From the sequence record NC_054651.1: a DNA stretch of 46,667 nucleotides; one strand, 5' to 3'. The position numbers and the translations under genes are program-made. Source of the DNA: Escherichia phage C1. This document shows positions 1 to 46,667 of the stretch, one piece after another (position 1 is the stretch's first letter; each line of letters begins with the position of its first letter). Under the pieces are notes generated by a model that worked only from the letters and a program-made list of their open reading frames with translations, was not told where the DNA came from and did no database searches.

Positions 1-181
1 TGTCATTCCACAGATGGGCGGCGTTATGCAGATGCTTGGTGGTAAACGTGATGACTCCGGTCAGCAACAAACACGCCAGCAATCAGGTCAACAACCGCAA
101 CAACAGCAGCCACCAAAACAACAAAGCCCACAAGGATGCAATGAGCCTCCGATGGACTTTGATGATTCAATACCCTTCTAA
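1..181 (+). CDS. ssb: single-stranded DNA-binding protein, C-terminal part (5' part is at 46366..46667; gene spans the window junction)
   Basis: No start codon in window; frame 2 translates to a Q/P-rich linker ending NEPPMDFDDSIPF*, the conserved acidic SSB tail; in frame with the ORF at window end. Confidence 0.85.
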   Translation, partial: VIPQMGGVMQMLGGKRDDSGQQQTRQQSGQQPQQQQPPKQQSPQGCNEPPMDFDDSIPF

Positions 182-194
182 ATGGTGATTTAGT

Positions 195-223
195 TTGACG
201 CGATACCCCTTTCTGAATATAAT
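195..223 (+). promoter_or_regulatory. sigma70-type promoter (TTGACG-17 bp-TATAAT) upstream of HNH endonuclease gene
   Basis: Consensus-like -35 and -10 hexamers with 17 bp spacer about 25 nt upstream of ATG at 250. Confidence 0.55.
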
Positions 224-249
224 TCACAAAAGCAGAAAGGGGTTAATAT

Positions 250-843
250 ATGAAATTATGTAAAAGATGCGGAATTGAAAAGGACGAAGGTTCTTTCTAT
301 AAAGGCGCAGGTATGAAGTGCAAGGATTGCACAAAGAGTGATGTTAGAGAAAATCTAAAGAATGTTGGTGATGCTTATGATAAAACAGAAAAAGGTGTAA
401 TCAGGGTTATATACAAGACGCAGAAAAGACACAATAAACTCAGAGGACATGGTGAAATTCCTTACTCAAAAGCCGAATTGTCATCATGGCTATACACCAA
501 TGGATTCAAGAGGCTTTATGATGAGTGGGTTTCCTCTGGTTATCTTAGTGACTTAAAGCCAAGCGTTGACAGGATTAATGATTTTATTGGTTATAGTTTT
601 GACAACATAAGGCTTGGAACATGGAGGATGAATAGAAATCATCAAAAGCAAGATATATTGTCTGGAGTAAACAAGAGTGGAAGAAGATGCAAGAGAGTCA
701 TAAAACTTGATTCAGATTACAATCTTATTTGTGAATATCCATCATATAATTCAGCGGCGCGCGACTGTGGTTATTCAATTGAGTATCAAATAAAAAATGG
801 CGTTAAATGCAGGAATGGATTTTTTTGGGCTTATAAATCTTAG
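250..843 (+). CDS. HNH homing endonuclease (HNH_3-like)
   Basis: 197 aa ORF; N-terminal Cys cluster (CKRCG...CKDC) and C-terminal block KPSVDRINDFIGYSFDNIRL typical of HNH_3 domain; free-standing between ssb and a terminator. Confidence 0.6.
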   Translation: MKLCKRCGIEKDEGSFYKGAGMKCKDCTKSDVRENLKNVGDAYDKTEKGVIRVIYKTQKRHNKLRGHGEIPYSKAELSSWLYTNGFKRLYDEWVSSGYLSDLKPSVDRINDFIGYSFDNIRLGTWRMNRNHQKQDILSGVNKSGRRCKRVIKLDSDYNLICEYPSYNSAARDCGYSIEYQIKNGVKCRNGFFWAYKS

Positions 844-872
844 TGCATATCTCACTTTCTGATGATAATAAT

Positions 873-897
873 AACCCCGCCGAAGCGGGGTTTATTA
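873..897 (+). terminator. rho-independent terminator
   Basis: GC hairpin CCCCGC-cgaa-GCGGGG followed by TTTATT, directly after stop of 250..843. Confidence 0.7.
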
Positions 898-1155
898 ATA
901 GCAATCAGACATCAGCTCCAGCCGCGTTTTTCCATGTGCTGCTAACCAACGGCCACTTTTAATGGTAATGCCTCCAGCGCACCCCTACGGGGGCACGCGA
1001 GGCTGATTGAGTGGAGGGATGCCCTCGCTTGAGTACATCACTTTTCAGTCTACACAGAAGCACGAACAATACTTGTGTATTGACCAGCACACGAAACTCA
1101 CTCTACTAGCCACTTCAGACCAGATAATTATTGTTTTATTGGCGGGGGATTTCAT

Positions 1156-3186
1156 TTAGTTTTGGAGTTCAACCGTTGATTTATGTACAATACCCCGGGT
1201 CGCATCCCCACCTTGTAAGATGAACTTCATAAGTGTGGCGGATGGAACCTCTAATAATCCAAGTCCCTGTGAAAGACCTCCGCCACCAACTGCATAAGCT
1301 TCACATTTATGTAAGTTAAACCCAGTAGGCGCAGCAACCCATACCACTCCATTAGCATCAAGGGCTGATACTGTCCATGTGCTTTGTTCGTAAAATCCAT
1401 TACCTACGTAGTACCATCCAGGACCAGGCTTAAGGGCATCAGCCAGGCCATTGTTACGACAGTAGTCAATAACTCTTTTGTTTGCGCGGCTTACTTTAAG
1501 ATAGTTAGTACATGCTACATTCCCACCGTTGAAAAACAATCTATTGCCTGACAATGCTGAATACAGATATTTATCTACAGACTCAAGATTGTTAAATGAA
1601 TTGGCAGATGCTGACATATTCATGCCATTTACAGTAATGTCATTACCTGTATTATTGAATGAAAAAATTGCTCTTGTTGCTGCTGGTATTGTAACTTCAG
1701 TTTGAGAATATTTGTTGGCAATTGTGTATCTTGCTGTATGTGCCCCGCTTGAGTTCATGTATGTAATGCTATAAACAAATCCAAAATTTGCAGTTATGTT
1801 TTTGTTGTTTTGGTCAGCAAGGAACAGTAACCCATTATAGAATTCAACCCCTAGTTCAAATGTGAGGTACTCACAATTGCTTCCCAGCTGTACTGCAATT
1901 GGTGTTTCGTTTGCACTATCCCAGATAGCTCCCTCGGTTGAGTTAAGAACTTCTACATAACCACGGAAAAAACCATACTGACATTTGTCAAGATAAATTG
2001 GGAATGGACATCCTCCTATCTCAACTCGCAGATCAAATGAAGTAGTTGGACCTGTAACGCCAACAGGAACTGTGTGTTCTGGTGTTGGTGATACAGGGTC
2101 AAAATAGATCCCTTTATGACAACTCAAAACACGTATAGTACCGACCATCCCCCAACATCCGTACCCATATACACCGAACTCTCCGCCCCACACGCTTACA
2201 TCGACTTTTGCTTTGATCGCATCATTCATATGAAGGCAAATTGACAGGTCACCTTTAACAGCAGACATCCATGCAACATTTGACCACTCAAGAGAAAAAC
2301 CCTGGAATACAACACCATTTACAAACCCATTTGTTGATGCTGTATCAGATGCTTTTTTTACTTTCACAATGCAGATATCGCCAATATTTGTTGATGATGT
2401 TACTGATGGTTTATCTTTAATTATCATTGTCCCATGAAAATGATCAGACTGCGGGCCTGCAATAAAGCAACTATTAATATCCAGCATCAATGTGTCGAGA
2501 GATGAGAATCTGTATTTCTTCAACGTTGGGCATCTTACTGAGCACTTTAAACTACGTGCTACTGTGTCTGCTTTTTGCATTGCGGCCCAGTCAATTGACT
2601 GAGATAAACTTGTTGCAAGCGGATACACCAATTGCGCATCAGTTAGAGTGGTGTATTTTTCTGATAATAGATGAAGAGTTCCATCTCCTATTGCTCCAAA
2701 CTGCTCTGGTGTTACATAATATAATGCCTGAGATAAATTACCAGATTGCTGAACGCCTACTCTAGTTGGGTCTACTAATGGTTCTCCGGGTGAATTTAAT
2801 TCACCCCTTAAAACTGCATCACCGACACTAACCCATGCTCCTAATTTAACACCGCCAGTACTATCTGGAGTTGAACCAGCAGGCACTATTTTAGGTAATT
2901 CACCATCCCATCGGTAATATTCTCCAGTAGCTTCATAACGCAGAGTCTGATTGGGAAGCGTCAGTGCCGCACCATCTTCGAAGCTATCCATTGTGATGTA
3001 GCCATAATTACGGATAGCCTCTTCTGCTGTGTACTGAAATCCAGCAATTGTCCAGCGGCGTACGCCGAAGCGATCAGTATAGTAATGCGCATCAGATGTC
3101 ACTACCTCATCAATCTTCCCGGCGTTAAACTTGAGGTCGCGCGGGTCTTCTGACGGAATTGGTTTATTAGTTGGTGTGGTAGCCAT
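1156..3186 (-). CDS. tailspike / tail fiber with pectate-lyase-like beta-helix domain (putative depolymerase)
   Basis: 676 aa, last gene of tail module; motif YYVTPEQFGAIGDG resembles the N-terminal signature of pectate-lyase superfamily tailspikes. Confidence 0.65.
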   Translation of the reverse strand: MATTPTNKPIPSEDPRDLKFNAGKIDEVVTSDAHYYTDRFGVRRWTIAGFQYTAEEAIRNYGYITMDSFEDGAALTLPNQTLRYEATGEYYRWDGELPKIVPAGSTPDSTGGVKLGAWVSVGDAVLRGELNSPGEPLVDPTRVGVQQSGNLSQALYYVTPEQFGAIGDGTLHLLSEKYTTLTDAQLVYPLATSLSQSIDWAAMQKADTVARSLKCSVRCPTLKKYRFSSLDTLMLDINSCFIAGPQSDHFHGTMIIKDKPSVTSSTNIGDICIVKVKKASDTASTNGFVNGVVFQGFSLEWSNVAWMSAVKGDLSICLHMNDAIKAKVDVSVWGGEFGVYGYGCWGMVGTIRVLSCHKGIYFDPVSPTPEHTVPVGVTGPTTSFDLRVEIGGCPFPIYLDKCQYGFFRGYVEVLNSTEGAIWDSANETPIAVQLGSNCEYLTFELGVEFYNGLLFLADQNNKNITANFGFVYSITYMNSSGAHTARYTIANKYSQTEVTIPAATRAIFSFNNTGNDITVNGMNMSASANSFNNLESVDKYLYSALSGNRLFFNGGNVACTNYLKVSRANKRVIDYCRNNGLADALKPGPGWYYVGNGFYEQSTWTVSALDANGVVWVAAPTGFNLHKCEAYAVGGGGLSQGLGLLEVPSATLMKFILQGGDATRGIVHKSTVELQN

Positions 3187-3225
3187 TATAATAAATGCTC
3201 CTTTGTGAATTTGATGTATATTGTA

Positions 3226-7026
<3,801 letters not shown>

Positions 7027-7027
<1 letters not shown>

Positions 7028-10655: not shown

Positions 10656-10667
10656 CCTGAATTTGAC

Positions 10668-10725
10668 TGATGTTGATTATATCATCTCAGTGGTGTTGAC
10701 ACCTGTGAGGTGGTGATGTAGATTC
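10668..10725. promoter_or_regulatory. divergent promoter module A: minus-strand extended -10 (TGATATAAT) and plus-strand TTGACA-17-TAGATT
   Basis: Plus strand GATTATATCA...GGTGTTGACA-N17-TAGATT; the reverse complement of the first part is TGATATAAT; near-copy of the module at 12774..12821. Confidence 0.5.
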
Positions 10726-29038: not shown

Positions 29039-30046
29039 CGATTGCCACGCTTCACGCTGTTTATCAAGCCTTTCCTGTGATGACTCAAGAATTACTGGCT
29101 TACCATCCATTAGCAATGCTGGAGTTTGTGCGCAATGGCAATTATATCTATTGCCGTTCTCGCTATAAAACGCATCAATCTCTTCTGGCGTGTAAAAGCG
29201 TCCGTGTCTCGCTGCGTGCGTCTGGCGGGTTGTGCGCATTAATGCTGATTGCCACAGCATCACAGTCTCAATGCCTAATTCCTCGCGAGCCTCAATGACT
29301 TCTCGCCTGTTTGCCTGACGCAGCGTTCCGGTGATTTCTGTCTGCGCCAGCTGTTTCGCGTAGCTGTGAGATACATCCACTCGCTTGACGATGTCAGCTT
29401 CAACGTCGCGAGGATTGGCGCCACGAGCAATACCTTCCATAATGACTGACGCCAGTTGCTGTCTGGAATAATCACTCAATCCGCGCCAGTCTGAATATCC
29501 GGATGTGTACGCCAGTTGCAGACGATTAAGATAAGGCTCACTGTAGAGTATCGCGGCAATCGGCCTTTGCCCAGCATAAACCGGAGACAGGCTTGACAGT
29601 TCGGAGTTGGCCTTCTGCGTTCCTGCCTGATACGTATCCCCGATAAACACATTGGCCCACATCCTGCCGTGACCGAAAGCATCACCTTCAAGCAGAATCT
29701 CATCAATCATTGCCTGCAATTCATCCATGAATGTAGCGGCACGCGCACTGCTGAAATCGTAGAAATACAGGCCGCTTGATTCTGCGTTGGCCTGACTGCT
29801 CGGAATAGTGCGAAACAACTCAAGCGCACGAGTCCTGAGTTGCTTGTATTTGCGCGTTATCACCTTGTCCATCTTCGACAGGCGAGTTGCAGCGCCTAAC
29901 GGGTCAGTCAGACTCTGCGATATGCGCGGCTGTGGAAGCCTTGCGTTAAACCGGAATATCTTCATTTTCATCTTCCGGTGGCATGTCTTCGCGATAACTC
30001 TCGTCAAGTTCAATCGGCTCCATGCCAACCATGCCGCGAGCTTCAT
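29015..30046 (-). CDS. head morphogenesis protein (minor head protein, SPP1 gp7 / Mu F-like position)
   Basis: 343 aa directly downstream of portal gene with overlap; synteny; true start probably internal. Confidence 0.5.
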
Positions 30047-31358
30047 CGACGGTCAGCAACGCAGATTGACCAGCATCAAAGAACGACTTGTTCGCAGTGG
30101 CGAGTTTAGCCAGCAATTCAGCTTTATCCAGTTCAGATGGGGAAAGCAGGTCATCCCATTTAACCTTGTAGCCATTTGCCGGGGCTTTATCGACAATACC
30201 GAACTGAATCATGCGCTCAACGAACATTGAGATGACATAATCCACCCACGTTTCGCGGCGCTGCTTGGCGGTCATCGCCTCCTGCATCTTGTCCTCATCG
30301 CTCGCAAGGCGTCCGGTTTGCTGCCCGAAAATGACGGTGAACGGAAGTGCCATTGATGCAGCGAACTGGTTGGCAGCCACTTCCCATGTAGGTTTCGGGT
30401 CAGCTGGTGTCACAGCAAGAACCTTCGCATCCGCACCCATTGTGAACATGGCGGCGTCAATGCCTGAGTTCAGCGCCTCAATGTTCTCATTCATGATGTC
30501 GGTGAGTTCTTCAATATCGACACCCATCGACTGCGCAAGGCTTGCTGGCGTTACGTTATCCTTCGTATAGTTTACCGCCAGCTGACGACTGGCATTCTTC
30601 AGGAAGCCTTCCGCAGAACTACCGGAAACCTTAGCCATGTCGATAAGGCTATTGTAGCCAGCACGTAGCATCGGGATGCCGCTGAACATACTGCCATCGA
30701 AGCTGCCCTCAGCCAGAATGATGATGCGATCAGGATGAATCTGCACGGAACGATCAGGCTTGCCGTCACTGTCGAAATCCTCAACAGCGCTTTCCTGATA
30801 TTCGTACATCTCAGGCATGCCGTAGTCTTCGCTGGTTTCGTCGTTATTCCATTGGCTGACGCGGAGTTGCTCTTCCCACACCGGAATGAAGCGAACGATG
30901 GATTTATCTTTAATGCGGCGGGTTTTAGTGATGTCTACCGGCTCACTCCATTGCTTACCATCACGGATTTGCAGGATAACGGCGGAATAGCGGTTGATGG
31001 CATTGCGCTTATCAGCTTCCTTGATGAACGGATAGGCGCGTTTCATCATGTCGTTGATGGATAGCTCCCACGGCGTTGAGTTCTTATCATCCTCGCCATC
31101 TTCAACCACTTCGGGGTATTTCTGCCAGCATTTATTAATAATGCGGTTAATTCCGGCGGCGGCGGCAGGATGTCGCTCGTAGGCGTAGCGGAACATCTCG
31201 GCGGTTATTTCCTGTGGGTATCCACATTCCGTCCAGAGACGATCGTGCTTCTGGTCAAGATTCTTCCCGCCAGCACAAAGCCGCTGTTGCTGAAGCGCCC
31301 GATTATTGTTCGCCACGCGATCGCGTATATAGGCGTTTAGTGCATCAATTTTTGACAT
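29946..31358 (-). CDS. portal protein (putative)
   Basis: 470 aa, acidic C-terminal tail, located between terminase and head morphogenesis genes. Confidence 0.6.
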
Positions 31359-32354: not shown

Positions 32355-32762
32355 TCAACAAAGTTCACCATCAGTTACCATTAACAACTTCTGCCATTTA
32401 GCCACCGGCTTGCACAGTTCAGTTTTCAGCCTGCTTAACGAACCTGTAATATCAGGCCACTCGGTAAACGGAACAAATCGCACGAATCGGTAATCAGCAC
32501 CAGCCCAGTGCCAGCCAAGCGTGTAATCAATGTATGTGCCGTCATCCTGCATATTGATGTAATGTGCAGTCACTGACTTGTCATCAATTACCACAACCTC
32601 AACCACTGCGCACGAACTGCCATCCCGCGCACGGTTTACTGCATTCAGGTGACATGCGTGATTGTACATACCAGTGCCATCAATGAATGATATATCAATC
32701 TTTTTGGTGTATTTCTTATCCGCATCGTCGCGGATTATTTTCTTTAACTTATTTCTGAACAT
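32355..32762 (-). CDS. hypothetical protein
   Basis: Track ORF 32355..32813, probable start MFRNKLKK. Confidence 0.4.
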   Translation of the reverse strand: MFRNKLKKIIRDDADKKYTKKIDISFIDGTGMYNHACHLNAVNRARDGSSCAVVEVVVIDDKSVTAHYINMQDDGTYIDYTLGWHWAGADYRFVRFVPFTEWPDITGSLSRLKTELCKPVAKWQKLLMVTDGELC

Positions 32763-32958
32763 GATTAATCCACCATGCGGCAATGGCTGAAATAATCCAC
32801 AATCCGATAACAAGCCTGAAAACCTGCCAGTTTAGAATGTCATCAATACTTGGAGCTTCCCATCTAATCAACCAGATAAACGGGAAAGCAATCGCTAGCG
32901 CAATGGTGTACTTAATACCAATAAACAGAAAATCTCTTACAAAATCTCTCATAATCAC
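32749..32958 (-). CDS. small two-TM membrane protein
   Basis: 69 aa, two hydrophobic helices. Confidence 0.4.
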   Translation of the reverse strand: MIMRDFVRDFLFIGIKYTIALAIAFPFIWLIRWEAPSIDDILNWQVFRLVIGLWIISAIAAWWINHVQK

Positions 32959-33161
32959 CCTCTCAAAAAATCATTCTTGCAGCAGATACCCTTGTACCCG
33001 CGCTTCTCTTGTAGGTTAACGAAGACATCATCCAGAACGCGCAGCAGGAAATCCTCGTCGATGTCATACCGACGACAAATCACCTCATCAGGCACACCAG
33101 CCCGCGCCAGTGAATAAACCTGTTCTTTTTCCTCCTGTGTGAATCCTGCATAGCTGCGCAT
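32955..33161 (-). CDS. hypothetical protein
   Basis: 68 aa; GGAGAT SD before ATG. Confidence 0.4.
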   Translation of the reverse strand: MRSYAGFTQEEKEQVYSLARAGVPDEVICRRYDIDEDFLLRVLDDVFVNLQEKRGYKGICCKNDFLRG

Positions 33162-33236
33162 AGTGATATCTCCGGTAAGCCTGATGTAGATATACTATGC
33201 GCTCGGTGTAGATTGGTCAAGTGTGGTGATGCAGAT

Positions 33237-34691
33237 TTATCGCCTGCGACGGAATAGCATCCCGCTACCGCGCTGGACGATGTGGTCATTGAGCGCATAG
33301 CGAACGGCATCCCAGTAGTGGTTAAATGCATCAACAATATCAGTGAGCACATTCCCTGTCAGCTTATCGACCTTGTAGCTGTACATTGCTGCTTCATTCT
33401 GCATTTCCTTGCATCGTTCGTGAATGACGATGCTGTCACAGCCACGCAGCCACGTAACGCCATCTTCAACGCTTCCCGGCCATTTTGTGCATGCGTGAAT
33501 ATCGAATCCAGAGCGCTTGATGTGGCTGATAGTTTCTGGTCGAGCGCAGTCCGCATACCATCGTGCGCGCTTAGCCATCGGGAATGATTGTTCCATCGCG
33601 GCTGGCGTGTCAGTAATCTCAAGCCCAACCTTGCCGTACTCGCGATTAATATAAATGTTACGCCTGTCGCCGGGTAAATCTTCGATGTAAACCTCAACCA
33701 TTGCGGTAGGGTCAGTGGAGAAACCGAAGTCCATCCCGAAGTATGGGCCATGCCATTCAGGCTTGACCTCAAAGTTATCAATGCGCCATTTGCCACCGAA
33801 GATTTGCTCGTCGCTACGTTTGTTAAATTTCCCTTCCCAAATCCACATGTAGCGATCGAAGTCAACGCGCTTCATTTTATCTTTTGAGCGGATTAATTCT
33901 TCAGTCATCCATGGATTATCGGTCCAGTTACACTCAATGATGAGTATTTCATCATCCTCGTAAATTCCGTTTACCATCTTGTTATGCCACGGGGCAACCC
34001 ATCGCGTCCATGTGGCATCGGTTTCTTTGTTGGGGTTGAATGTCACCCATATTTCAGCGCCTGGATTGCGAACGGTAGGCTCAAGAATATCCCACGATGC
34101 CTGACTGACGTTTTCAGCCTCCTCAATCCATGCCTTCGTGATACCAGCAAAACCCTTAACGCCAGTCACGTTTCGATAAAGGCCACGGAAACGGAACTTT
34201 GATTTAGTCTTCTTGTGGGTAATCTTGCCATCAATGCAACGATACTCTTTTGATTCTCCTTTGCGATCAATCTCATCCACCAGTTCCTGATAGCTGGAGT
34301 CTTCAATTGATTGTTGAATCTCGCGGAAGCACCCGATACGTTCGGATTTGAATCTTGCCGACTCAGTAAGGATTGTCGATACCGTGCGAGTCTTTGCCGA
34401 CCCACGTCCGCCGTATACAACCTTCCACGGCTTGGGGTAAAGCAGGCGCTCCAGCTTTGCTGGAATAAGGTGGTCAGCATGAGTGGTTGAATTGGTCACA
34501 TCATCAACGCCAGTGGCTGTCATTCTTAACCGCTTAATGACGTTCTTCTGCATATCGCAGATGCCAAAAATGGCGGACTCTGCAACATCTGTCATTGCAT
34601 CATCAATCTGCGCCTCCAATTTTTCGATTGCCAGTGCGGAGAGGCGTTTACGAGCCATATCGAGAGCAGCCCCATGAAATGACCCAACCAA
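33237..34691 (-). CDS. terminase large subunit
   Basis: 484 aa; Walker A-like VVYGGRGSAKT near N-terminus, acidic nuclease-type C-terminal half; preceded by small-subunit-like gene. Confidence 0.85.
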   Translation of the reverse strand: MVGSFHGAALDMARKRLSALAIEKLEAQIDDAMTDVAESAIFGICDMQKNVIKRLRMTATGVDDVTNSTTHADHLIPAKLERLLYPKPWKVVYGGRGSAKTRTVSTILTESARFKSERIGCFREIQQSIEDSSYQELVDEIDRKGESKEYRCIDGKITHKKTKSKFRFRGLYRNVTGVKGFAGITKAWIEEAENVSQASWDILEPTVRNPGAEIWVTFNPNKETDATWTRWVAPWHNKMVNGIYEDDEILIIECNWTDNPWMTEELIRSKDKMKRVDFDRYMWIWEGKFNKRSDEQIFGGKWRIDNFEVKPEWHGPYFGMDFGFSTDPTAMVEVYIEDLPGDRRNIYINREYGKVGLEITDTPAAMEQSFPMAKRARWYADCARPETISHIKRSGFDIHACTKWPGSVEDGVTWLRGCDSIVIHERCKEMQNEAAMYSYKVDKLTGNVLTDIVDAFNHYWDAVRYALNDHIVQRGSGMLFRRRR

Positions 34692-34798
34692 TGCACCAGA
34701 ACATCAAGCCAAAGATGCATCCAGTAAAGTCATTATTTGGTTGTGTTACGCTTGTTAAGCTCATAATAATTGATGCTAAAAAGCAAGCCGTAATGCTC

Positions 34799-35218
34799 TT
34801 ATCCATTCTGCTGCTCCAGTAATTTCTCCAGTCGCTCAAGGCGCGCGGCGAGTTCGGTAACTTCGGCAATATCCAACCCCGTCCTGATAACCTCGGCAAA
34901 TGTTTTGCCAATGTCCACAGGTATAACGCCAGCGGCTATGCCACGAATAACGGCGTCAATCTTCTCTACCGGAGTTCCATCATCAGGGAAATCAACTTCA
35001 AAGACAGGCGCTACCGGTTTCGGCAACGGGCTGAATCGAACGATAAGTTCCTTCATCATTGCGGTGTCACGTTCAATCATCGCCATCTCAACAATGGTGT
35101 CATAGAGCTTTTCCTCGCTAAACCCCTTTCTCTCAAGAGCTTCAACGAGCAACTTACGCTTGTCTTTCCCGCGTTTATTTTGCGGTTGATTTTCTTTGCT
35201 GAATAGCTTTTTAGCCAT
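34799..35218 (-). CDS. terminase small subunit (putative)
   Basis: 139 aa, basic N-terminus, immediately upstream of large subunit. Confidence 0.55.
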   Translation of the reverse strand: MAKKLFSKENQPQNKRGKDKRKLLVEALERKGFSEEKLYDTIVEMAMIERDTAMMKELIVRFSPLPKPVAPVFEVDFPDDGTPVEKIDAVIRGIAAGVIPVDIGKTFAEVIRTGLDIAEVTELAARLERLEKLLEQQNG

Positions 35219-36738: not shown

Positions 36739-36775
36739 AAACCAGAACTCATATGTTTTTGCTTTTGCTATATCA

Positions 36776-37426: not shown

Positions 37427-37628
37427 TTCTTTTCCTCATGGCCTTTAGCCTGCAATATGGACAGCAGTACTTCTTGTCACTTCTGCATCCTGGCAACAGG
37501 TCTTTCCCGCACATCAAGCACTTCATTATTAACCCTCACAATAAAGATAACACATAGCTGTTATCATATCAAGATGTAATGCAAGACATTATCACAATAA
37601 AACATATCAAAAGTGATAGCTTTCCTGT

Positions 37629-37811
37629 TCAGAACACGATAATCAGCTCATCCATTACTCTGCGCTTACCTTCTCCATTAAACACGCGCACAACGCGATT
37701 TACGCGGATGGATTCCATTGCATTACGTGCCTGCTTGCTCATAAAGTTCTGCGCGCCAACGTGACCGAGTTCTTGTTCCAGCTTCTCGCGACGGTAGATA
37801 GTTTTTGCCAT
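37629..37811 (-). CDS. hypothetical small basic protein
   Basis: 60 aa ORF. Confidence 0.3.
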   Translation of the reverse strand: MAKTIYRREKLEQELGHVGAQNFMSKQARNAMESIRVNRVVRVFNGEGKRRVMDELIIVF

Positions 37812-38323
37812 TTATTGCACCTCGTAAGAGTTAGTGATTGCCTTAATGCGGCGACGATACCATTGCATGATGTGTTCGTTATGCCAGTTGCTCATTTTGT
37901 TACCCCTTATAACCTGATTTAGAAACTGCCACTGAGATAATGATGAATGCCACGATAATCAGACTGGCGATAAGTTCGAATGTTGCTCCTGTCATTTACT
38001 TAACCCATACGCTGAGATTAAAGCCTGCATTGCCGCGTTCCAGAATGCTTCCGCAGGAATGCTATTGTTTGCGCGGTTAACTGCAATGCGTGCCATAGCT
38101 TGTGCATCTTCAAATTCTTCACGGTCTTTGATTTTCATTATGCGTACCTGTTATATGAAAGTTTTTTACATGCGTAATATTGTTTTTCTGCATAAGCAAA
38201 GGTCTTTCCAGTCTTCATCATCGCATCAATGAATTTGTGCGCGTCACCCTTTGACTCGCAATACAGAGCTATTGCGTATTTGGTAGGTTTCATCTCTTCA
38301 CCCTCGTTTGTTCCGATGAGTTC

Positions 38324-38352
38324 AATCTACATCAACGACGATTCTACGTCAA
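38324..38352 (-). promoter_or_regulatory. sigma70-type promoter (TTGACG-17-TAGATT) for leftward operon
   Basis: Read on minus strand; two copies of the GTAGAWT motif. Confidence 0.5.
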
Positions 38353-38680
38353 CAGGAATGCGTTAAAAACGTGCTCGTGGGGTAAATTTTTGCTCGTGGG
38401 GTAGGTCGTGGGGAAGGGGGCATGCCCCACTGGAAACCCTTGTGCCATGCGGCTTTTAACATGTTTGGGGAAGTGGGGCAGATTTCATACCCATCCCCTT
38501 ATAAATATATTCAAATAATCCATTTGTTAATATTATGTTAATTACTACCTATAATATGAATAATAATATTACCCATTAACCCAAATAATAATAATTTTAT
38601 TATATTACATATACTTAGAGGAGAGCTTCGTGGGGAAGGTGATGTTCCCCACGGCTGCCCCACGTTACCCACGTTAGTCG
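38350..38680. repeat. origin-like region: CGTGGGG iterons in both orientations flanking a ~120 bp AT-rich core, plus GGGGCATGCCCC palindrome
   Basis: Three direct CTCGTGGGG copies at about 38354, 38383, 38396; palindrome about 38405; AT-rich 38490..38620; further CGTGGGG/CCCCACG copies at about 38628, 38647, 38658. Confidence 0.55.
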
Positions 38681-38749
38681 TATTTGATGTTGCATGATTC
38701 AATAGTTATGATATGATTCAATCATAATTTGTTACTGGTGGAGGATTTT

Positions 38750-38968
38750 GTGAAACTTGACAAATACGGCAAAAAGAATGCAGCTCTTTCTGGATTATCG
38801 GTGGTTTCAGTAGGGGAGACTGTGATGATTGACTCGAAGAGATTTGGGGGCATTGCAAGCCTGAGGAACGCATTAAACTATTTTATGCGCAGGAATGAAG
38901 GCATGAAATTCTCAACAAAGGTTGGATACCCTGACAAAGACATGGTTTACGTAAAAAGGATTTCATGA
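38750..38968 (+). CDS. hypothetical small protein, first gene right of origin-like region
   Basis: GTG after GGAGGA SD inside track ORF 38729..38968. Confidence 0.35.
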   Translation: MKLDKYGKKNAALSGLSVVSVGETVMIDSKRFGGIASLRNALNYFMRRNEGMKFSTKVGYPDKDMVYVKRIS

Positions 38969-40521
38969 TGATCACAGCGCAAGACATCTTCAACGAAGCA
39001 AGGGAATTAAAAGTATCTCCTGCTCGCGTCGCCTTCCATCATGGCATGACGCCAAGCTCAAACATGTGGCTTGACATTAAGGAAGGCAAGGAGCGTGATG
39101 TAACGTACTCAGAAACAGAACTGACCAGTGAGCACCGGACTGATTTACTGTCTCGTTATGCAATCGCTGCAGCTCGTGCTGTTCAGTTCCCAATAAATAC
39201 ATCGTTCATGCATTTACTTGGGTGCGTTGCCAGCGCAATGACGAGAAACTTTAGCGTTGAGTATTACCATTCAGAGCTTCCAGTTTCTCTTTACGTGGTT
39301 ACTTCGCAGCCTCCATCAGCAGGGAAAACCGCTATCAACTCAATGCATATGAATCCGGTGAAGATTGAATACGACAACCTTTCCAAAAAGATGGAAAAGC
39401 AAATCATAAAAATAAATCTTCGCATCGAAGAGTTGATGAAGGCATACAAAGAGGCCAGCAATCAGAATGCAAAGGCACTAATCGGAGATGATATTGCTCG
39501 CGAAAAGGAGAAGCTGGAGGAGCTTTATACGATCACATATCCACTGACGGACGCAACGCCGGAGGCTGTTCAGCATCAGGCAATCCATGAAGGTGGTTTT
39601 TTTAATCTGATAAGTGACGAGGCAAGCGTTCTTAACACATGTCTTGGCCTCTCTTACGGAAAGGAAGGTGGAAAGGCAAACGCCGAAGTCATCCTGAAGG
39701 GCTGGGATGGCGGATTTATTGGTTCTGCTCGTGTTGGTCGTGGCGTTTCATCTGGTTATGTGCTTGGAAACATAAGTGTGATTGCTCAGGATGAAAGTAT
39801 TGATGCCATTCTTGCCGCTGGCGACAGGGGGAACGGGCTTTCTGAACGTTTCCTCATGTTGCGAGAGCAATCAATGCTTGGCTATCGCGAACACTGGGAC
39901 ATGGTTAATGATTGCCCTGTAAGCAAGCCAATGCCAGACAGCTTGAGGTCGGAATATGCAAGATTTATACATAATGTTGTGTCAGCAGAAAAAACAAAAC
40001 TGACGCTTCACAATGACTCAGCAAGAATGATCGGCCTGTTACGAAATCAGTGGGAGAAAAACTTCCTTCCCGGCGGTAAGTGGGACCACGTTCTTCTTCG
40101 TGGCGCGATGGGTAAAGCTGATAAGCAAATAATCCGTCTGGCAGCAATATTTCACGCTGCTGAAAACTGGTGCGATGGAGGAAAGCGTTCAAAGATTATC
40201 GGTGAAAATGAGATTAGTCGCGCCATCAGTGTTTATGACGCACTGACAAAAACATTCACTGATGCTGTTGAATCAAATGGGTATGCTGGTGAGCGTTCTG
40301 AATTTGATGTTGTTGCCGAAAAGCTACGCTCTGCCGCTCAGAAAGGAAAAACAAACGTAACGGTGAAGTGGCTTTATGATTCACTTAAAAACGTGCGACC
40401 ATTCAAAGGGATACCTAAAATTTATGACCGACTCAGATCAAGCGTATTGCCATCACTTGAAGAGGATGGTTACTGCGTTTTTATTGGTAATACTGTCCAC
40501 ATTAATCCGAGGTTGAAATGA
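38965..40521 (+). CDS. large hypothetical protein, putative replication-associated (DUF3987-like?)
   Basis: 518 aa; degenerate P-loop-like SQPPSAGKT; adjacent to origin-like region; function not resolved. Confidence 0.4.
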   Translation: MMITAQDIFNEARELKVSPARVAFHHGMTPSSNMWLDIKEGKERDVTYSETELTSEHRTDLLSRYAIAAARAVQFPINTSFMHLLGCVASAMTRNFSVEYYHSELPVSLYVVTSQPPSAGKTAINSMHMNPVKIEYDNLSKKMEKQIIKINLRIEELMKAYKEASNQNAKALIGDDIAREKEKLEELYTITYPLTDATPEAVQHQAIHEGGFFNLISDEASVLNTCLGLSYGKEGGKANAEVILKGWDGGFIGSARVGRGVSSGYVLGNISVIAQDESIDAILAAGDRGNGLSERFLMLREQSMLGYREHWDMVNDCPVSKPMPDSLRSEYARFIHNVVSAEKTKLTLHNDSARMIGLLRNQWEKNFLPGGKWDHVLLRGAMGKADKQIIRLAAIFHAAENWCDGGKRSKIIGENEISRAISVYDALTKTFTDAVESNGYAGERSEFDVVAEKLRSAAQKGKTNVTVKWLYDSLKNVRPFKGIPKIYDRLRSSVLPSLEEDGYCVFIGNTVHINPRLK

Positions 40522-40709
40522 GAACAATATCAGGCGAACTTTGCCGCTCAGAAGGTTCATGGCATTTCAGACCGTATGGTTATTCGACGTGGTTTTTCTG
40601 GAGTGGTATTAACAAAGTATGGATTCGATCTAATTACCACGTGCTTGATGATTACTGGCACAGATTTTGTATTGGTTATGTTGATATTTCAAAATTGATG
40701 ATTAAATGA
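40518..40709 (+). CDS. hypothetical small Trp-rich protein
   Basis: 63 aa ORF. Confidence 0.3.
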   Translation: MRTISGELCRSEGSWHFRPYGYSTWFFWSGINKVWIRSNYHVLDDYWHRFCIGYVDISKLMIK

Positions 40710-40718
40710 GGTAATTAT

Positions 40719-41024
40719 ATGGCTAACCTGCAACTTGCCGTCAAAGGTGAATACTTCGATGCCATGATTCGCGGAGAGAAAACGGAAGAGTATCGCCTTT
40801 TTAATGACTACTGGAAGAAGCGCCTTATTAACTTTAAAGATAGCGGACAGATTGGAAGGAAGTACGAAAGGTTAATTATCACAAAAGGATATCCAAAGAA
40901 GGACGATAAATCCAGGCGTATTGATATCCCATACGATGGATGGACGGTTAAGACCATCACCCACCCACACTTCGGTCCTGACCCGGTGGAAGTGTTCGCA
41001 ATAAAAGTTAACCTCAAAGCATAA
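40719..41024 (+). CDS. ASCH-like domain protein
   Basis: 101 aa; N-terminal LAVKGEYFDAMIRGEKTEEYR resembles ASCH signature. Confidence 0.45.
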   Translation: MANLQLAVKGEYFDAMIRGEKTEEYRLFNDYWKKRLINFKDSGQIGRKYERLIITKGYPKKDDKSRRIDIPYDGWTVKTITHPHFGPDPVEVFAIKVNLKA

Positions 41025-41026
41025 CA

Positions 41027-41052
41027 AAAACCCTCCATATGGAGGGTTTATT
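41027..41052. terminator. bidirectional rho-independent terminator
   Basis: AAACCCTCC-atat-GGAGGGTTT hairpin, T-run; between convergent gene ends. Confidence 0.7.
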
Positions 41053-42006
41053 TTATCTTCTAACTGACATTTTCTCTATCAACTCGCCAGCGTCATAAAT
41101 TTTTCTCCTGATTCTCTTTGCCATCCTGATAGTGTCAGCATCATCAGGAAGCATCACCGGAAGTCCTGCGTTTTCCGCAGCGCAAAGTTCGTTAAATTTA
41201 TAGTTAACTATGCAACGCAATATCGCCTTCATCTCATCGCTAACAGAACGCACCACTTCCCACATGTTTTCCGGCGACCAGCAGCACCAGACATGAGCTC
41301 CAGTGAAGTAATGGCACTTCCACGCGTCGGCATAATCAGATACCAGGTAAATGAACTTTCCGTTATCTTCTCCGATTGGGCTTATCGCCCCGCGCGTGAG
41401 CTTTCCGTTGATAGCTGAGTCTTTGTTGTATCCAGCACGGAAAAACGTTCTGAATGAATCACCATCCATGCCAATGAACGCCACGTTACACGGCTTCATT
41501 GTGTCAGCGCGTATCATCTCAACCGCAATAAGCTCTCCAGATTTAGCTCTGACGACGTTAACGTCGCAACCAATACCATTTATCAACGTCCACTCATTCA
41601 TCGCGACACGCGTCGTTTTAGCCATGATTGCGGCAACTTCCTGCTCGGTGATGAAGTCGTCATTATGATTTATCTTCGGTAACTCCTTCCTGATTGCTTC
41701 CAGTTTTTCACGCGGGTGCATATTCAGGAATCCACCAAGTGCCTCAAGTGCTTCGGGAAAGCTCATGCCAGAGAGTTTCATCAGCCAGGTGATTCCGCTG
41801 CCGTTTCCACACTGGTTACAGATGGCGCCGCCGTCACCTTTGTAGTCCAGGTTATCATCGAATCGAAATCTGTCGCGACCGCCGCAACTTGGGCATGGCT
41901 GGTGCTTACCATTGAAAACTCTGCTATTCACACTGACGATAGACATGATGGCGGCCTGCCAGTTCCCAAGCATTTTTGGCTCAATGTCTTTCCAGTCGTA
42001 TCTCAT
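41053..42006 (-). CDS. DNA primase (zinc-ribbon + primase core)
   Basis: Track ORF 41053..42117; likely start MRYDWKD; zinc-ribbon CPSCGGRDRFRFDD...CNQCGNGSG typical of phage primases. Confidence 0.65.
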   Translation of the reverse strand: MRYDWKDIEPKMLGNWQAAIMSIVSVNSRVFNGKHQPCPSCGGRDRFRFDDNLDYKGDGGAICNQCGNGSGITWLMKLSGMSFPEALEALGGFLNMHPREKLEAIRKELPKINHNDDFITEQEVAAIMAKTTRVAMNEWTLINGIGCDVNVVRAKSGELIAVEMIRADTMKPCNVAFIGMDGDSFRTFFRAGYNKDSAINGKLTRGAISPIGEDNGKFIYLVSDYADAWKCHYFTGAHVWCCWSPENMWEVVRSVSDEMKAILRCIVNYKFNELCAAENAGLPVMLPDDADTIRMAKRIRRKIYDAGELIEKMSVRR

Positions 42007-42008
42007 AA

Positions 42009-42060
42009 ATTGACCCTTGATTGTTGGTGTAGATTGAGTATAAGCTAACTGACGTAGAAA
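42009..42060 (+). promoter_or_regulatory. promoter region for rightward replication/recombination operon with GTGTAGATTG and TGACGTAGAAAC motifs
   Basis: TTGATT-16-TATAAG candidate; same motif pair as at 15690..15735. Confidence 0.45.
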
Positions 42061-42081
42061 CATCAACAAAAGGATATAGCA

Positions 42082-42345
42082 GTGTTCCTTGATAGCATTT
42101 TTAAGAGGATTTTTCATGGCAAGCCAATCCCTGTTGCCTTCGGATACCCGCCACGAAGCAACACATGGTTAACCATATACAGAAGACAGAGAACTGGAGA
42201 ATGGATTTTTGAGTGGGATGATTTGTTTGCCGATGAGAGGCCAGAAGATTATCTATGGAATCTTAGTTATATGTATTTTTATAACGGAATAGATGATGAA
42301 ACAAAGAAACAAGCAATTGAACACCTTGGCGCGAGGATTTTGTGA
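42082..42345 (+). CDS. hypothetical protein
   Basis: 87 aa ORF, GTG start after AAGGAT. Confidence 0.35.
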   Translation: MFLDSIFKRIFHGKPIPVAFGYPPRSNTWLTIYRRQRTGEWIFEWDDLFADERPEDYLWNLSYMYFYNGIDDETKKQAIEHLGARIL

Positions 42346-44291
42346 TGCATAAAATCGACGCAATGATTGCGGAACTTGACATAGATAAATTGCGGTCAGT
42401 TGTTCATACAGGGGAAATTGAGCCACGACCATATCAGTGGCTGGTTTATGAAAAGACGGCTGAAGTTATCCGCAAGTTTGGCAAAGACCCGAAACCAAGT
42501 TTTGTGACTGCATCGGTAGGTGCGGGAAAGACCATTATGATTGCCATGATTGCGCGACGCTTTCAGGATATGGGGTGGGAAGGTCTTGTTATTGCCAGGC
42601 AGGGGGAAATTATTGAGCAGGATGCGGAAGAGCTGTGGAATCTGAGTGTTAAAAACTCACTTTTCAGCGCGTCTCTTGGCAGAAAATCAACGGCATACCC
42701 GCTTATTGCTGGTACTGAGGGAACAATAATAAATGGCCTTTTCGATAAGAAGGACGAGTCAGGTAATGTTCTTTCTAAAGGTGCGCTTTCCGATTTTTGC
42801 CCTCGCTATATCCTTATTGACGAATGCCACCAGATGAACTGGGAGGACGTGGTAAGCGAAAGTCCTGAAACGCAATATGGCGTAATAATGACTGAGCTTA
42901 ACCGCAGATGTAAAGCTAAATACGGACATGATGTCATTGTTATTGGATACACAGGTAGCCCGTTTCGTGGCACCGACTCGATTAAGGGTGCTTACTGGAA
43001 ACATGAAATAGTAAACATTGACACTAAATATCTTGTTGATATTGGGTTTCTTGTGCCTACGATTTTTGGCCTGCATGACATTGATGATTTGCATTACGAC
43101 CTGTCAGCATTTGAGGCGTCAGGAAGCGATGGAACGCAGGACTTCACTGCCGAGCAACTCAAGCAGATGCAAAAAGAAATCCTTGAGCAAGGGACACTCA
43201 CGCAGAAAATCATGCTCAAGGTTATGGAGCTGACAAAAAACAGAAATGGCGTATTGATCACATGCGCTGGCAAGAAGCACTGTCAGGAGGCGGCAAAATA
43301 TTTACCTGAAGGAAGTTATGCGATCGTAACTGAAGATATGGGTATGAAAGCCAGACGCAAGGCATTAAAGGATGCATACACTGGCAAGATTAAATATGTT
43401 TTCCAGATTGGTTGCTTGACGACAGGCGTCAATATCCCACTCTGGGATACAAGCGTCATATTACGAAAAATAATGTCACTCACTCTTCTTGTGCAGCTGC
43501 TTGGTCGCGGGATGCGCCTGCTGAAGAAAGAGCAAATTGATGCAGGGTATCATAAAGAGGACCATCTGGTTCTTGACTTCTCTGGCACGATGTTTGAGCT
43601 TGGTCAGCTATATGCAGACCCAATTCTGGAAGAAGCCGAAGCGCAACGTTCAAAACGCAGTGGTGAACAGGTTCCGTGTCCTAAGTGCGGAACAATGAAC
43701 AGCCCATATGCGCGTCGCTGCATTGGCAAAGATGCATTGTCGCCAGATGGTAGATGCGAGGAGTTTTTCAGTTATATTCGTTGCGGTTTCGATAAGCACG
43801 GCATCCGTATTTTTGATGATGGTTGCGGTACTAAAAACGACCCAACGGCGCGTTATTGCCGACATTGCGATCACGTTTTGCGCGACCCGAATGCGGCACT
43901 TAATGAGCGTGCGTATACCGATAATGAGTGGGCTGATGTTATGGATTTCAAAGTCCAGTTAACGAAGGATGGAGAAGGTATTTTGTATCGCTACTGGATT
44001 AATCGTTGTGATGGGAAAGAGGGATGGGCTAACGAAGTTTTCTACCCCTATGGCGGCGCAACTCACATGAAAAACATGTTTAAGGCAAAAGCGGTCTTTC
44101 CTCACCTTGATGATAAGTCAATGGCGGGTAAAATCCTGAAGTGCCAGAACGCCAAGCAGTTCATGATGTATGCGGGATTGATTAAAGCGCCAAAACGCAT
44201 CACACATCGTATTAACGATAAAGGTCGTGACATAATCCACAGAAAAGATTTTGCAGGAGAGAATAGTGAAAAAGCGATTCAAGCAGCATGA
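42342..44291 (+). CDS. superfamily-2 DNA helicase (DExH box) with C-terminal zinc-ribbon region
   Basis: 649 aa; Walker A ASVGAGKT, DECH box (LIDECHQ), motif VI-like QLLGRGMR, C-terminal CPKC...C...C cluster. Confidence 0.8.
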   Translation: MMHKIDAMIAELDIDKLRSVVHTGEIEPRPYQWLVYEKTAEVIRKFGKDPKPSFVTASVGAGKTIMIAMIARRFQDMGWEGLVIARQGEIIEQDAEELWNLSVKNSLFSASLGRKSTAYPLIAGTEGTIINGLFDKKDESGNVLSKGALSDFCPRYILIDECHQMNWEDVVSESPETQYGVIMTELNRRCKAKYGHDVIVIGYTGSPFRGTDSIKGAYWKHEIVNIDTKYLVDIGFLVPTIFGLHDIDDLHYDLSAFEASGSDGTQDFTAEQLKQMQKEILEQGTLTQKIMLKVMELTKNRNGVLITCAGKKHCQEAAKYLPEGSYAIVTEDMGMKARRKALKDAYTGKIKYVFQIGCLTTGVNIPLWDTSVILRKIMSLTLLVQLLGRGMRLLKKEQIDAGYHKEDHLVLDFSGTMFELGQLYADPILEEAEAQRSKRSGEQVPCPKCGTMNSPYARRCIGKDALSPDGRCEEFFSYIRCGFDKHGIRIFDDGCGTKNDPTARYCRHCDHVLRDPNAALNERAYTDNEWADVMDFKVQLTKDGEGILYRYWINRCDGKEGWANEVFYPYGGATHMKNMFKAKAVFPHLDDKSMAGKILKCQNAKQFMMYAGLIKAPKRITHRINDKGRDIIHRKDFAGENSEKAIQAA

Positions 44292-44706
44292 ACTAAGTGA
44301 TAATGTTTTTGTGTTTGATGATGGCTACCGTGGCAAGTGCCCGCTTGAGGATTCCGACCTGATAGCGTTCAAGTGGTGGATGGATTACCAGTTTCCTGAT
44401 GTGCTGTGGTTCCATCCGTCTCAGGAGACCAAAAGCAACTCAGTGCAGCATCTGGCATCGCGCGCAAGGAAAGGTGTAAGGTCAGGGGTGTCTGATGTGA
44501 TAATCCTGACGCCTGGTGTGAGGTGGTATAAAGCGACGATAGAGTTGAAGCGGCATGATTCAACGCTTAGCAAATGGCAACCTGGACAGATACCGTTTCT
44601 CAACGATAGCGCCAGCGCTGGTGCATTCTCTGCGGTGGCGTGTGGACTCGACCAGATAAAGATTGCAGTGTTGACGTATTTTGGCTTGCCTTTTGATGTG
44701 GGTTGA
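44266..44706 (+). CDS. VRR-NUC-like PD-(D/E)XK nuclease
   Basis: Track ORF 44251..44706; GTG after AGGAG; blocks GVSDVIILTPG and ATIELKR fit D...E-x-K nuclease core. Confidence 0.5.
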   Translation: MKKRFKQHELSDNVFVFDDGYRGKCPLEDSDLIAFKWWMDYQFPDVLWFHPSQETKSNSVQHLASRARKGVRSGVSDVIILTPGVRWYKATIELKRHDSTLSKWQPGQIPFLNDSASAGAFSAVACGLDQIKIAVLTYFGLPFDVG

Positions 44707-44714
44707 TGTAGATT
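44686..44714 (+). promoter_or_regulatory. sigma70-type promoter TTGCCT-17-TAGATT
   Basis: Contains TGATGTAGATTC motif; upstream of exonuclease gene. Confidence 0.4.
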
Positions 44715-44743
44715 CATTTACGTGATGATGAGTGAGGTTAACA

Positions 44744-45682
44744 ATGAAAGTCTATTTCAATAATGAATTAACTAATAAGCAATACCACACTGACACCGAG
44801 CACATTAACGGATCTGGCCTGTGGAATCTGTATGACAGATGCCCCGCAGCTTGGCGCTACAAAGACGAAGAAGATGAGCAGTCAAAAGCTCTTGTCTTCG
44901 GAACCGGAAGCCATACCGCGTTGCTTGAACCTGAACGTTTCGATGCTGAATATGCTCGTATGCCAACCAAAGAAGATTTTGGTGATGACCTGCTCGTTAC
45001 CGTTAGTGACATGAACTCGTGGGCGAAAGAGCGCGGAATTAAAGGGCTTTCAGGGAAGTCGAAAGCTGAGGTAATCAAAATCATTCAGGCGACTGGCGAA
45101 CCAGTGAAGATTTACGATGTAATCCGTGAAGAAGCTGAAAAAGCTGCGGCGGGAAAGCAAATGCTGGAAGGTGGTGATTATGATGCCATTCAGCAAATGC
45201 GTGCTGTAATCCACGCGAACAGCTATTACAGCAGCCTTCTCGCTGGCGCTTATGCTGAGGTGTCAATTCTTGGTGAGCTTAACGGAGAAAAAGCAAAGGT
45301 TCGCTTCGACTGCCTGACAAAAGGTGGCGACATAATTGACTACAAGACAGCAGTAAGCGCAAAGCCTGATGAATTTTTCCGTCATGCTGCGAGACTTGGC
45401 TACTTCATGAAGATGGCTATGCAGCACGACATGTTTGTTTCGGCATATGGTCATGCGCCGCGTTCTGTAAACCTTTTAGTTCAGGAAAAGAAATCTCCGT
45501 TTATTCCTGCTTTGATTCGTTTGACTGAAGAGCAATTACGAATCGGTCGCATTCAGTTGAATGGTGCAATGGAAATTTACAAGGCGTGCAAAAAAGCCAA
45601 TTCGTGGCCGGGATATTCAATGGGTAATCCTGTCATCGAAATGGAGACGCCTGAATGGTTCAAAAAACAGTTTAATTTATAA
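44744..45682 (+). CDS. recombination exonuclease (PD-(D/E)XK family)
   Basis: Track ORF 44732..45682; ATG at MKVYFNN; motif IIDYKT; partner position upstream of ERF gene. Confidence 0.5.
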   Translation: MKVYFNNELTNKQYHTDTEHINGSGLWNLYDRCPAAWRYKDEEDEQSKALVFGTGSHTALLEPERFDAEYARMPTKEDFGDDLLVTVSDMNSWAKERGIKGLSGKSKAEVIKIIQATGEPVKIYDVIREEAEKAAAGKQMLEGGDYDAIQQMRAVIHANSYYSSLLAGAYAEVSILGELNGEKAKVRFDCLTKGGDIIDYKTAVSAKPDEFFRHAARLGYFMKMAMQHDMFVSAYGHAPRSVNLLVQEKKSPFIPALIRLTEEQLRIGRIQLNGAMEIYKACKKANSWPGYSMGNPVIEMETPEWFKKQFNL

Positions 45683-45693
45683 TCAGTGAGGTG

Positions 45694-46362
45694 ATGAAAG
45701 TGATTTTCTCGGAACAGAAAGCGAATCTGATTAAGGCTCTGGTTGAGGCTCGCAAGGTGATGAGTAGCGGCGCAAAGAAAAACGCCAAAAACCCACACCT
45801 GAAAAGCAATTACGCAAACCTTGAGTCGTTTCTTGATGCAATACGCCCAGCGCTTGAGGCTAACGGTCTTATAATCATCCAGAATGCCATTGATGGTGAC
45901 TCAATGGATGTGTTGAAACTTGAAACGACGATAATGCATGAGTCTGGCGAGTACATGTCATCCGTGATGCCAATGCCTGTTGCTAAAAAAGATGCGCAGG
46001 GGTATGGCTCCGCAATGACGTATGCTCGCAGATATTCCATCGCAGCAATGTTTGGTATTGCCCAGGCTGATGATGACGGTAATGCTGCTCGCAAATCTCC
46101 AAAAGATGCAGTTGCATTGATTCGCAACGCATCCAGCATGGAAGAGTTAGCTTCAATCTATGGCGAGGAATACAAGTCATTTCGTGGTGATGATGCAGCA
46201 ACTCGCGTTATTGTTGGTGCTTATCAGGAGATGAAGGCAAAATTCATGGTATCAGGCGAATCATTCAACCCTGCAAAACTGGCTAAACCGCAACCACAAC
46301 AACCAGAACCGCAGGAAGAAACAAAAGCCGAACATAAACCAACTCCAATTGAAGGATTTTAA
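45694..46362 (+). CDS. ERF-family single-strand annealing protein
   Basis: 222 aa; block GSAMTYARRYSIAAMFGIAQADDDGNAA matches ERF signature; followed by ssb. Confidence 0.6.
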   Translation: MKVIFSEQKANLIKALVEARKVMSSGAKKNAKNPHLKSNYANLESFLDAIRPALEANGLIIIQNAIDGDSMDVLKLETTIMHESGEYMSSVMPMPVAKKDAQGYGSAMTYARRYSIAAMFGIAQADDDGNAARKSPKDAVALIRNASSMEELASIYGEEYKSFRGDDAATRVIVGAYQEMKAKFMVSGESFNPAKLAKPQPQQPEPQEETKAEHKPTPIEGF

Positions 46363-46365
46363 TAA

Positions 46366-46667
46366 ATGGCACGCGGCGTAAACAAAGTGATTATTGTCGG
46401 CACTCTCGGTAACGACCCTGAAGTTAAATATTCAGCATCAGGCTCTGCAATTGCCAACCTTTCCGTTGCAACATCTGAGCAGTGGAAAGACAAGCAAACA
46501 GGAGAAAAGAAAGAGCAGACTGAATGGCATCGCGTTGTTATCTTTGGAAAACTCGCAGAAGTTGCAGGAGAATACCTTCGCAAAGGATCGCAGGTTTATA
46601 TAGAAGGCCAGCTTCGCACTCGTAAGTGGGCTGACAGCAACGGCGTAGACCGATATACCACTGAGAT
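46366..46667 (+). CDS. ssb: single-stranded DNA-binding protein, N-terminal part (continues at 1..181)
   Basis: [20 protein letters not shown]...[39 protein letters not shown]... nearly identical in pattern to E. coli SSB OB-fold; runs off window end. Confidence 0.9.

Follow-up and report, generated by a model that had tools for sequence, protein, structure and literature searches.

We analyzed the two ends of the sequence record of Escherichia phage C1 (NC_054651.1), a stretch of 46,667 nucleotides (nt) that was taken whole, as one strand, and is referred to here as the window. The gene in question is ssb, encoding a single-stranded DNA-binding protein (SSB), which lies in two pieces at opposite ends of this window. 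The 5′ part (46366..46667, plus strand) opens with an ATG at 46366, and the 302 nt from there to the window end amount to 100 codons plus 2 nt, the AT of codon 101. The 3′ part (1..181, plus strand) supplies the missing third base of codon 101 (a T), the 59 further codons 102 to 160 (encoding a Gly/Gln/Pro-rich linker and an acidic tip), and a TAA stop at 179-181. Joining 46366-46667 to 1-181 and translating across the join gave a single open reading frame (ORF) of 160 amino acids (aa), with the ends of the record dividing the Ile101 codon as AT|T. The product reads ...DRYTTEIVIPQMGGVMQMLGG...NEPPMDFDDSIPF*, with the C terminus MDFDDSIPF, and the alternative forward frames over the join are interrupted by several stops. 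A first-pass annotation had described an ssb ORF that starts at 46366, runs off the 3′ end, and is continued in frame by the first 181 nt of the window; these coordinates proved to be exact.

The joined product matched the Pfam SSB family (PF00436) with 132.1 bits (cutoff, 26; 9.7e-39) over aa 5-106, so that the match itself crosses junction residue 101. Of the solved structures, PDB entry 7f2n aligned with aa 2-160 of the joined SSB (chain residues 3-174; E value, 8.5e-61) unbroken over the join, and 1eqq likewise aligned end to end (E value, 2.9e-58). The alignment takes in the “GG.MQMLGG” segment that follows directly upon the join, as well as the acidic tip. The protein thus combines an oligonucleotide/oligosaccharide-binding (OB) fold domain that scores above threshold, collinearity with solved SSBs, and an acidic tip of the form D-F-D-D-x-I-P-F, all of which place it among the bacterial-type SSBs. 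It resembles the enterobacterial SSBs represented by 7f2n and 1eqq in its OB fold, its Gly/Gln/Pro-rich linker, and its C-terminal acidic tip. However, the linker of the phage protein is shorter (160 aa in total, versus 174 to 178 aa), and its tip, DFDDSIPF, differs in one residue (S for the third D) from the DFDDDIPF of 7f2n. Judged by its sequence, the joined product is a full, ordinary bacterial-type SSB.

The join also is present, uninterrupted, in other phage genomes. A 648-nt query built over it found a one-piece internal match at 100% in Escherichia phage S192 (ON239132.1), and at least 80% of the query was covered in one place by 26 records in all (at least 25 phage genomes besides the window). 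Identities to the query were 93.4% in KFS-SE2, 91.6 to 91.8% in Bas77-80, and 88% in DS8, and Skate, STGO-35-1, and LPST10 were also among the phages that covered it; in most relatives, homology to the query ends right after the ssb stop codon. The exact 32-mer at the ssb junction was absent from IMG/VR. In S192, ssb is a single internal coding sequence (URP83757.1; ON239132.1 32757..33239), in which the 5′ part of the window's gene corresponds to 33239..32938 and the 3′ part to 32937..32757. The check that the first-pass annotation had proposed for its reading, namely, translation from the end of the window into its start, therefore yields a 160-aa SSB whose Pfam and PDB matches cross the join and whose coding sequence is found intact in ON239132.1.

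S192 (Deseoctovirus; from piglet intestinal mucosa, China) was recovered as a megablast match and is, like the window, 46,667 bp long. A base-by-base comparison of the window with the reverse-complemented and rotated ON239132.1 revealed 0 indels and 34 substitutions (99.93% identity). Window positions 44000-46667 correspond to ON239132.1 35605-32938 and positions 1-3000 to 32937-29938, both on the minus strand; the last base of the window (46667) is position 32938 of the S192 record, and the first is position 32937, i.e., the two are adjacent there. Gene order in S192 is the same as that in the window, with ssb, erf, and terL among the identical genes, whereas the record runs the opposite way and is opened 13.7 kb off, at window 32937|32938. 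One of the 34 differences falls in the tailspike gene (S380P, window position 2049), 32 fall in a patch within the portal gene, and one falls at window position 32938. We had considered whether the window might be a literal rotation of ON239132.1, since BLAST reported 100.0% identity, but the 34 substitutions rule this out and indicate that the window is a sibling isolate of equal length rather than a copy of S192. The intact ssb of S192 comes from an independent assembly and hence provides real, noncircular evidence that the two ends of the window are contiguous. The two genomes belong to one species, given that they are 99.93% identical over 46,667 bp and that the International Committee on Taxonomy of Viruses requires >95% nucleotide identity over the whole genome (as cited in PMC11990801). 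We found no mention of S192 by name in the literature. Phage C1 (MH717097; Deseoctovirus, 46,667 bp) has been reported as a lytic “core phage” of pig guts and shares its genus, laboratory, and source type with S192 (PMC11048100).

The reciprocal test is provided by the point at which the S192 record is opened. A 67-aa ORF (32749..32952, minus strand) spans window 32937|32938; it is intact in the window, where it has the same length as its homologues in IME207 and Bas77 (93% and 91% identical, respectively), and it is annotated as partial (“<1..189”) in ON239132.1. IME207 aligns with the window over 1,220 nt across this point with 0 indels, and collinearity at this site extends to Bas77 and to an IMG/VR contig. 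Since the window and S192 each bridge the break of the other, together they describe a map that closes into a circle of 46,667 bp, from which no sequence is missing. Comparison of the two records thus shows that ON239132.1, though titled “partial genome,” is in fact a complete unit-length genome that was opened within the 67-aa ORF.

Several details of this second junction deserve mention in their own right. Two copies of a 9-nt repeat (AGAGATTTT; encoded residues, RDF-V-RDF) flank the break in the S192 record. The base at window position 32938 is a T, as it is in IME207 and in IMG/VR contig L010, and the final base of ON239132.1, read as its reverse complement, is a C; the difference is synonymous (GTA/GTG, Val). 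Given that it sits exactly at the end of the record, this mismatch may have arisen as an error at the end of the S192 contig. The adjoining 68-aa ORF (32955..33161, minus strand; phrog_13301), which is the last coding sequence of the S192 record, has a stop that overlaps an upstream in-frame GTG (32958-32956) in the frame of the 67-aa ORF.

As for the rest of the window, terminase, portal, capsid, tail, tailspike, lysis, replication, and recombination modules are all present, and its length is within the 44.6- to 48.5-kb range of its relatives, the records of which are opened at many different genes, with several having been deposited as circular. The window has no terminal direct repeat of ≥10 nt and no overhang signature at its ends; no direct repeat of ≥25 nt was found that joins the ends or distant parts of the genome, and GC skew showed nothing linked to the ends. 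Taken together, the data support the view that the window is a complete unit-length genome linearized at an arbitrary point inside ssb. The first-pass annotation had arrived at the same view, that of a complete circular genome opened arbitrarily within ssb, and it is borne out by the equal length of S192 with no indels, by the mutual bridging of the two breaks, by the relatives that cross both joins, and by the lack of a terminal repeat. The break inside ssb is therefore a bookkeeping artifact without new biology, and its content was already in public data. It nevertheless has a practical consequence. The window must be annotated as circular; otherwise ssb will be split into two fragments or mistaken for a pseudogene, and its recombination module will seem truncated.

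Other origins for this arrangement can be envisaged. If sequence had been lost between the ends, or the ends had been misjoined, then the “partial genome” title given to ON239132.1 by its submitters (a label that also counts against our reading of a complete circular map) and the partial first coding sequence of that record would be in keeping with such a loss. However, ssb is full length and keeps its collinearity over the join, both with the solved SSBs and with 25 or more homologues from phages, the ORF that is cut by the ends of the S192 record is exactly full length in the window, IME207 passes through 32937|32938 for 1,220 nt without an indel, and every module is present in a genome whose length is inside the 44.6 to 48.5 kb seen in relatives, so we regard an incomplete or misjoined window as extremely unlikely. 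The idea that the break in ssb marks a true physical end of the packaged DNA, with a packaging initiation (pac) or cohesive-end (cos) site inside the gene, draws on the position of the window end and on nothing further, and we find it scarcely credible: the sibling S192 is opened 13.7 kb off in a different gene (for which reason the ssb break is uninformative about physical ends), other relatives are opened elsewhere and have ssb as an internal gene, and the ends have neither a repeat nor an overhang signature. Moreover, in headful phages such as P22, SPP1, and Sf6, pac usually lies within or near the gene for the small terminase subunit (terS), a region that here is about 11.5 kb from ssb. 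Finally, the circular map might be that of a circular replicon in cells (a plasmid-prophage), or come from an integrated temperate phage, and not reflect permuted virion DNA. A ParB-like partition protein is indeed annotated in relatives, but the portal-terminase region gave 0 megablast matches in 5,426 complete E. coli genomes and 72,556 plasmids, and C1 and its relatives have been described as lytic (PMC11048100, PMC8954984). The lack of a match and the lytic descriptions speak against circularity of prophage or plasmid origin, to which we would assign a vanishingly small chance.

A complete, circularly mapping genome raises the matter of how the DNA is packaged. We observed directly that the ends are contiguous, that the genome is complete and lacks terminal repeats, and what its genes are; contiguity by itself proves a circular map and no more, because genomes with cos ends or direct terminal repeats (DTRs) also are circularized by assemblers. 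The relevant gene is terL, which encodes the large terminase subunit (33237..34658, minus strand). TerL belongs to the Terminase_3/PBSX family (Pfam Terminase_3, 1.2e-34; Terminase_3C, 1.2e-10; TIGR01547, 143 bits with a cutoff of 105), and at an E value of ≤1 the only solved structures that it matched were Sf6 gp2 (2.1e-39) and the nuclease domain of SPP1 G2P (4.9e-9). SPP1 gene 2 also was recovered in a tblastn search with TerL (23% identity over aa 80-467). Both Sf6 gp2 and SPP1 G2P are pac-type headful enzymes. The TerL of the window shares its Pfam and NCBIfam family assignments with these two proteins (Terminase_3 plus Terminase_3C; PBSX), although the relationship is distant, in that its first ca. 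70 aa are outside the matched regions (which start at aa 70 to 80) and in that the candidate small terminase subunit of the window (see below) is not recognizably related to known TerS families. No lambda, HK97, T7, or T5 terminase of solved structure was matched at an E value of ≤1. A terminase of the P22/Sf6/SPP1 clade, coupled with an assembly that closes into a circle and retains no terminal repeat or overhang, is what would be expected of a pac-type phage.

Closer relatives are informative in this regard. The TerL of the window is 85% identical (aa) to that of Salmonella phage STGO-35-1 and 82.5% identical to that of Klebsiella phage DP01. For STGO-35-1, PhageTerm was reported to show preferred termini in DNA that is terminally redundant and in part circularly permuted, which corresponds to headful (pac) packaging (PMC8954984); for KlebP_265, a congener of DP01, PhageTerm gave no termini, and the genome was called redundant and permuted (PMC11769527). 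Headful packaging of phage C1 is therefore plausible, by analogy with read-based results on relatives and from TerL homology. The first-pass annotation had described its circular genome as consistent with headful packaging, and indirect support for this statement comes from the family of TerL (Sf6 gp2 and SPP1 G2P) and from its 85% identity to the STGO-35-1 protein. In the proposed scheme, virion DNA would be produced by cleavage of concatemers with a terminase of the headful (pac) type, like those of Sf6 and SPP1 (Terminase_3/PBSX); such cutting would give rise to terminally redundant, circularly permuted molecules, the assembly of which would be a circle without a natural start.

A number of points weigh against this scheme, and most of them are also what speaks for the alternative that the circular map is complete and the virions have defined ends elsewhere (a short DTR or cos), which were collapsed by the assembler. 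Circular assemblies also come from genomes with cos ends or short DTRs. Neither TerS nor a pac site has been identified with confidence, the latter not having been sought experimentally. The packaging mechanism of the relative seszw was stated to be unknown (PMC9825161), and the seszw TerL is only 61.5% identical to that of the window, which indicates that terminase alleles are exchanged within the group. Against a phage with defined ends, however, stand the matches of TerL, which among solved terminases at an E value of ≤1 are to the headful Sf6 gp2 and SPP1 G2P and to no others, its 85% identity to the enzyme of STGO-35-1, for which PhageTerm indicated headful packaging, and the fact that no repeat resembling the remnant of a collapsed DTR was found. 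Defined ends thus appear improbable to us. Overall, we consider it highly probable that the window is the complete, arbitrarily opened genome of a virulent Deseoctovirus/Skatevirus-group siphovirus, with a circular map that most likely would result from headful packaging. In this well-populated group of small enterobacterial siphoviruses, one would expect ssb to be intact, the map to be circular, and packaging probably to be headful; Deseoctovirus, Skatevirus, and their relatives have in fact been well sampled (PMC11990801).

Two further observations concern the terminase and packaging in these phages. Phages that share ca. 90% identity over other regions have one of two TerL alleles, either ca. 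82 to 85% identical to that of the window (STGO-35-1 and DP01) or ca. 61% identical (seszw and ZK22), in accord with a report that terminase genes have been exchanged horizontally in the group (PMC11769527). In addition, engineered deletion mutants of Salmonella phage seszw (MZ3752xx-MZ3753xx) are viable down to ca. 36 to 37 kb, versus 45.9 kb for the wild type. Such viability would be compatible with headful packaging, in which deletions simply would raise the terminal redundancy, and does not constitute proof of it.

Just upstream of terL is a gene for a 139-aa protein (34799..35218, minus strand; phrog_9747) which, by its position, is a candidate for TerS. On the minus strand, a terminator-like hairpin (35321-35303) is followed by a promoter-like site (35291-35262) and then by this ORF as the next gene. 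The protein has a basic N terminus, a three-helix region, and a heptad-rich C-terminal helix, and it is conserved across this phage group; phrog_9747 is a PHROG of unknown function. Searches with the single sequence and with a 19-member profile gave 0 Pfam, NCBIfam, or PDB sequence matches. AlphaFold2 models had a predicted local distance difference test (pLDDT) score of 48 from the single sequence and 68 from a shallow alignment, and with these models, which are of low to moderate confidence, Foldseek returned nothing meaningful from the PDB and unnamed viral proteins only from BFVD. Published annotations of the group likewise report that TerS was not found (PMC11769527). One tentative possibility, which we rate as rather doubtful, is that phrog_9747 may be the missing TerS of Skatevirus-, Deseoctovirus-, and Roufvirus-like siphoviruses, perhaps constituting a family without detectable similarity, in sequence or in fold, to known TerS proteins. 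It seems less likely still that these phages pair a TerL of the Sf6/SPP1 type with a nonheadful end structure. Between the TerS candidate and terL, and overlapping the start of the latter, is a small ORF (34660-34765, minus strand) for a hydrophobic peptide of ca. 38 aa (MSLTSVTQPNNDFTGCIFGLMFWCIGWVISWGCSRYGS).

Directly upstream of ssb is a gene for an Erf-family single-strand annealing protein (45694..46362, plus strand; Pfam ERF, 1.1e-26; URP83758.1), the exact sequence of which was found by look-up only in ON239132.1. It is preceded by a gene (44744..45682, plus strand) for a PDDEXK-like, DUF3799-containing protein (Pfam DUF3799, 7.9e-25) that resembles exonuclease VIII and is annotated as such in relatives. 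In bacterial SSBs, the OB domain coats single-stranded DNA and the acidic tip recruits partner proteins. The ssb gene closes a recombination module made up of a PDDEXK exonuclease, an Erf annealase, and SSB. Immediately downstream of ssb is an endonuclease VII/HNH-like gene (250..843, plus strand; phrog_1035 endonuclease VII, 1e-16), which at the nucleotide level was found only in S192 and in Salmonella phage PSH-1 (94.6%) among the relatives listed. Owing to this restricted distribution among the listed relatives, the gene is probably a free-standing homing endonuclease insertion.

DS8 and the Skatevirus-like siphoviruses (Skate, Sf11, seszw, Bas77-81, IME207, STGO-35-1, and LPST10) share ca. 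88 to 91% nucleotide identity with the window over 55 to 75% of the genome. Their modules are ordered as in the window, and their ssb-erf-exonuclease module is intact and internal; most of them do not share the tailspike region of the window (ca. 1156-2810) or the endonuclease gene that follows ssb. The tailspike gene itself (1156-2810, minus strand; Pfam Tail_spike_N) aligns with relatives only from ca. position 2811 on (the N-terminal anchor). Its receptor-binding part is not common to the relatives, and matches to some phages of Pectobacterium and Dickeya lie within positions 1-3000. The pattern of conservation would be typical of host-range module swapping.

The portal protein gene (29946..31358, minus strand; phrog_146 portal, 3.9e-108) holds a patch of 403 bp (30819-31221, minus strand) that accounts for 32 of the 34 differences from S192, with ca. 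8% divergence and 2 amino acid changes. Outside this patch, the remaining 46 kb contain only two substitutions relative to S192 (at positions 2049 and 32938). From this uneven distribution, the patch looks like the product of recombination or gene conversion. In our search for a donor, no phage record in the collection surpassed S192 itself (93.3%) in similarity to the patch as it stands in the window.

A different kind of mosaicism was seen at the start of a 101-aa ORF (40719-40828), where patches of 35 to 110 bp are 92 to 100% identical to sequences near Eaa/DUF551 genes in more than 100 lambdoid or Shiga toxin (Stx)-converting prophages. Large-scale exchange with Stx-converting phages, which matches of “≥99%” might have suggested, was rejected, as the patches measure just 35 to 110 bp and are confined to this segment; they amount to small mosaic boundary segments that are shared. 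No tRNA or transfer-messenger RNA genes were found in the window, and no Rfam family reached its gathering score there. Two copies of a 25-nt element with an inverted repeat (TCGTGGGGAAGG...CCCCAC) are located at 38406-38430 and 38628-38652, 222 bp apart, in an AT-rich region with several promoter-like sites between divergent transcription units. These elements could be operators, terminators, or origin elements.

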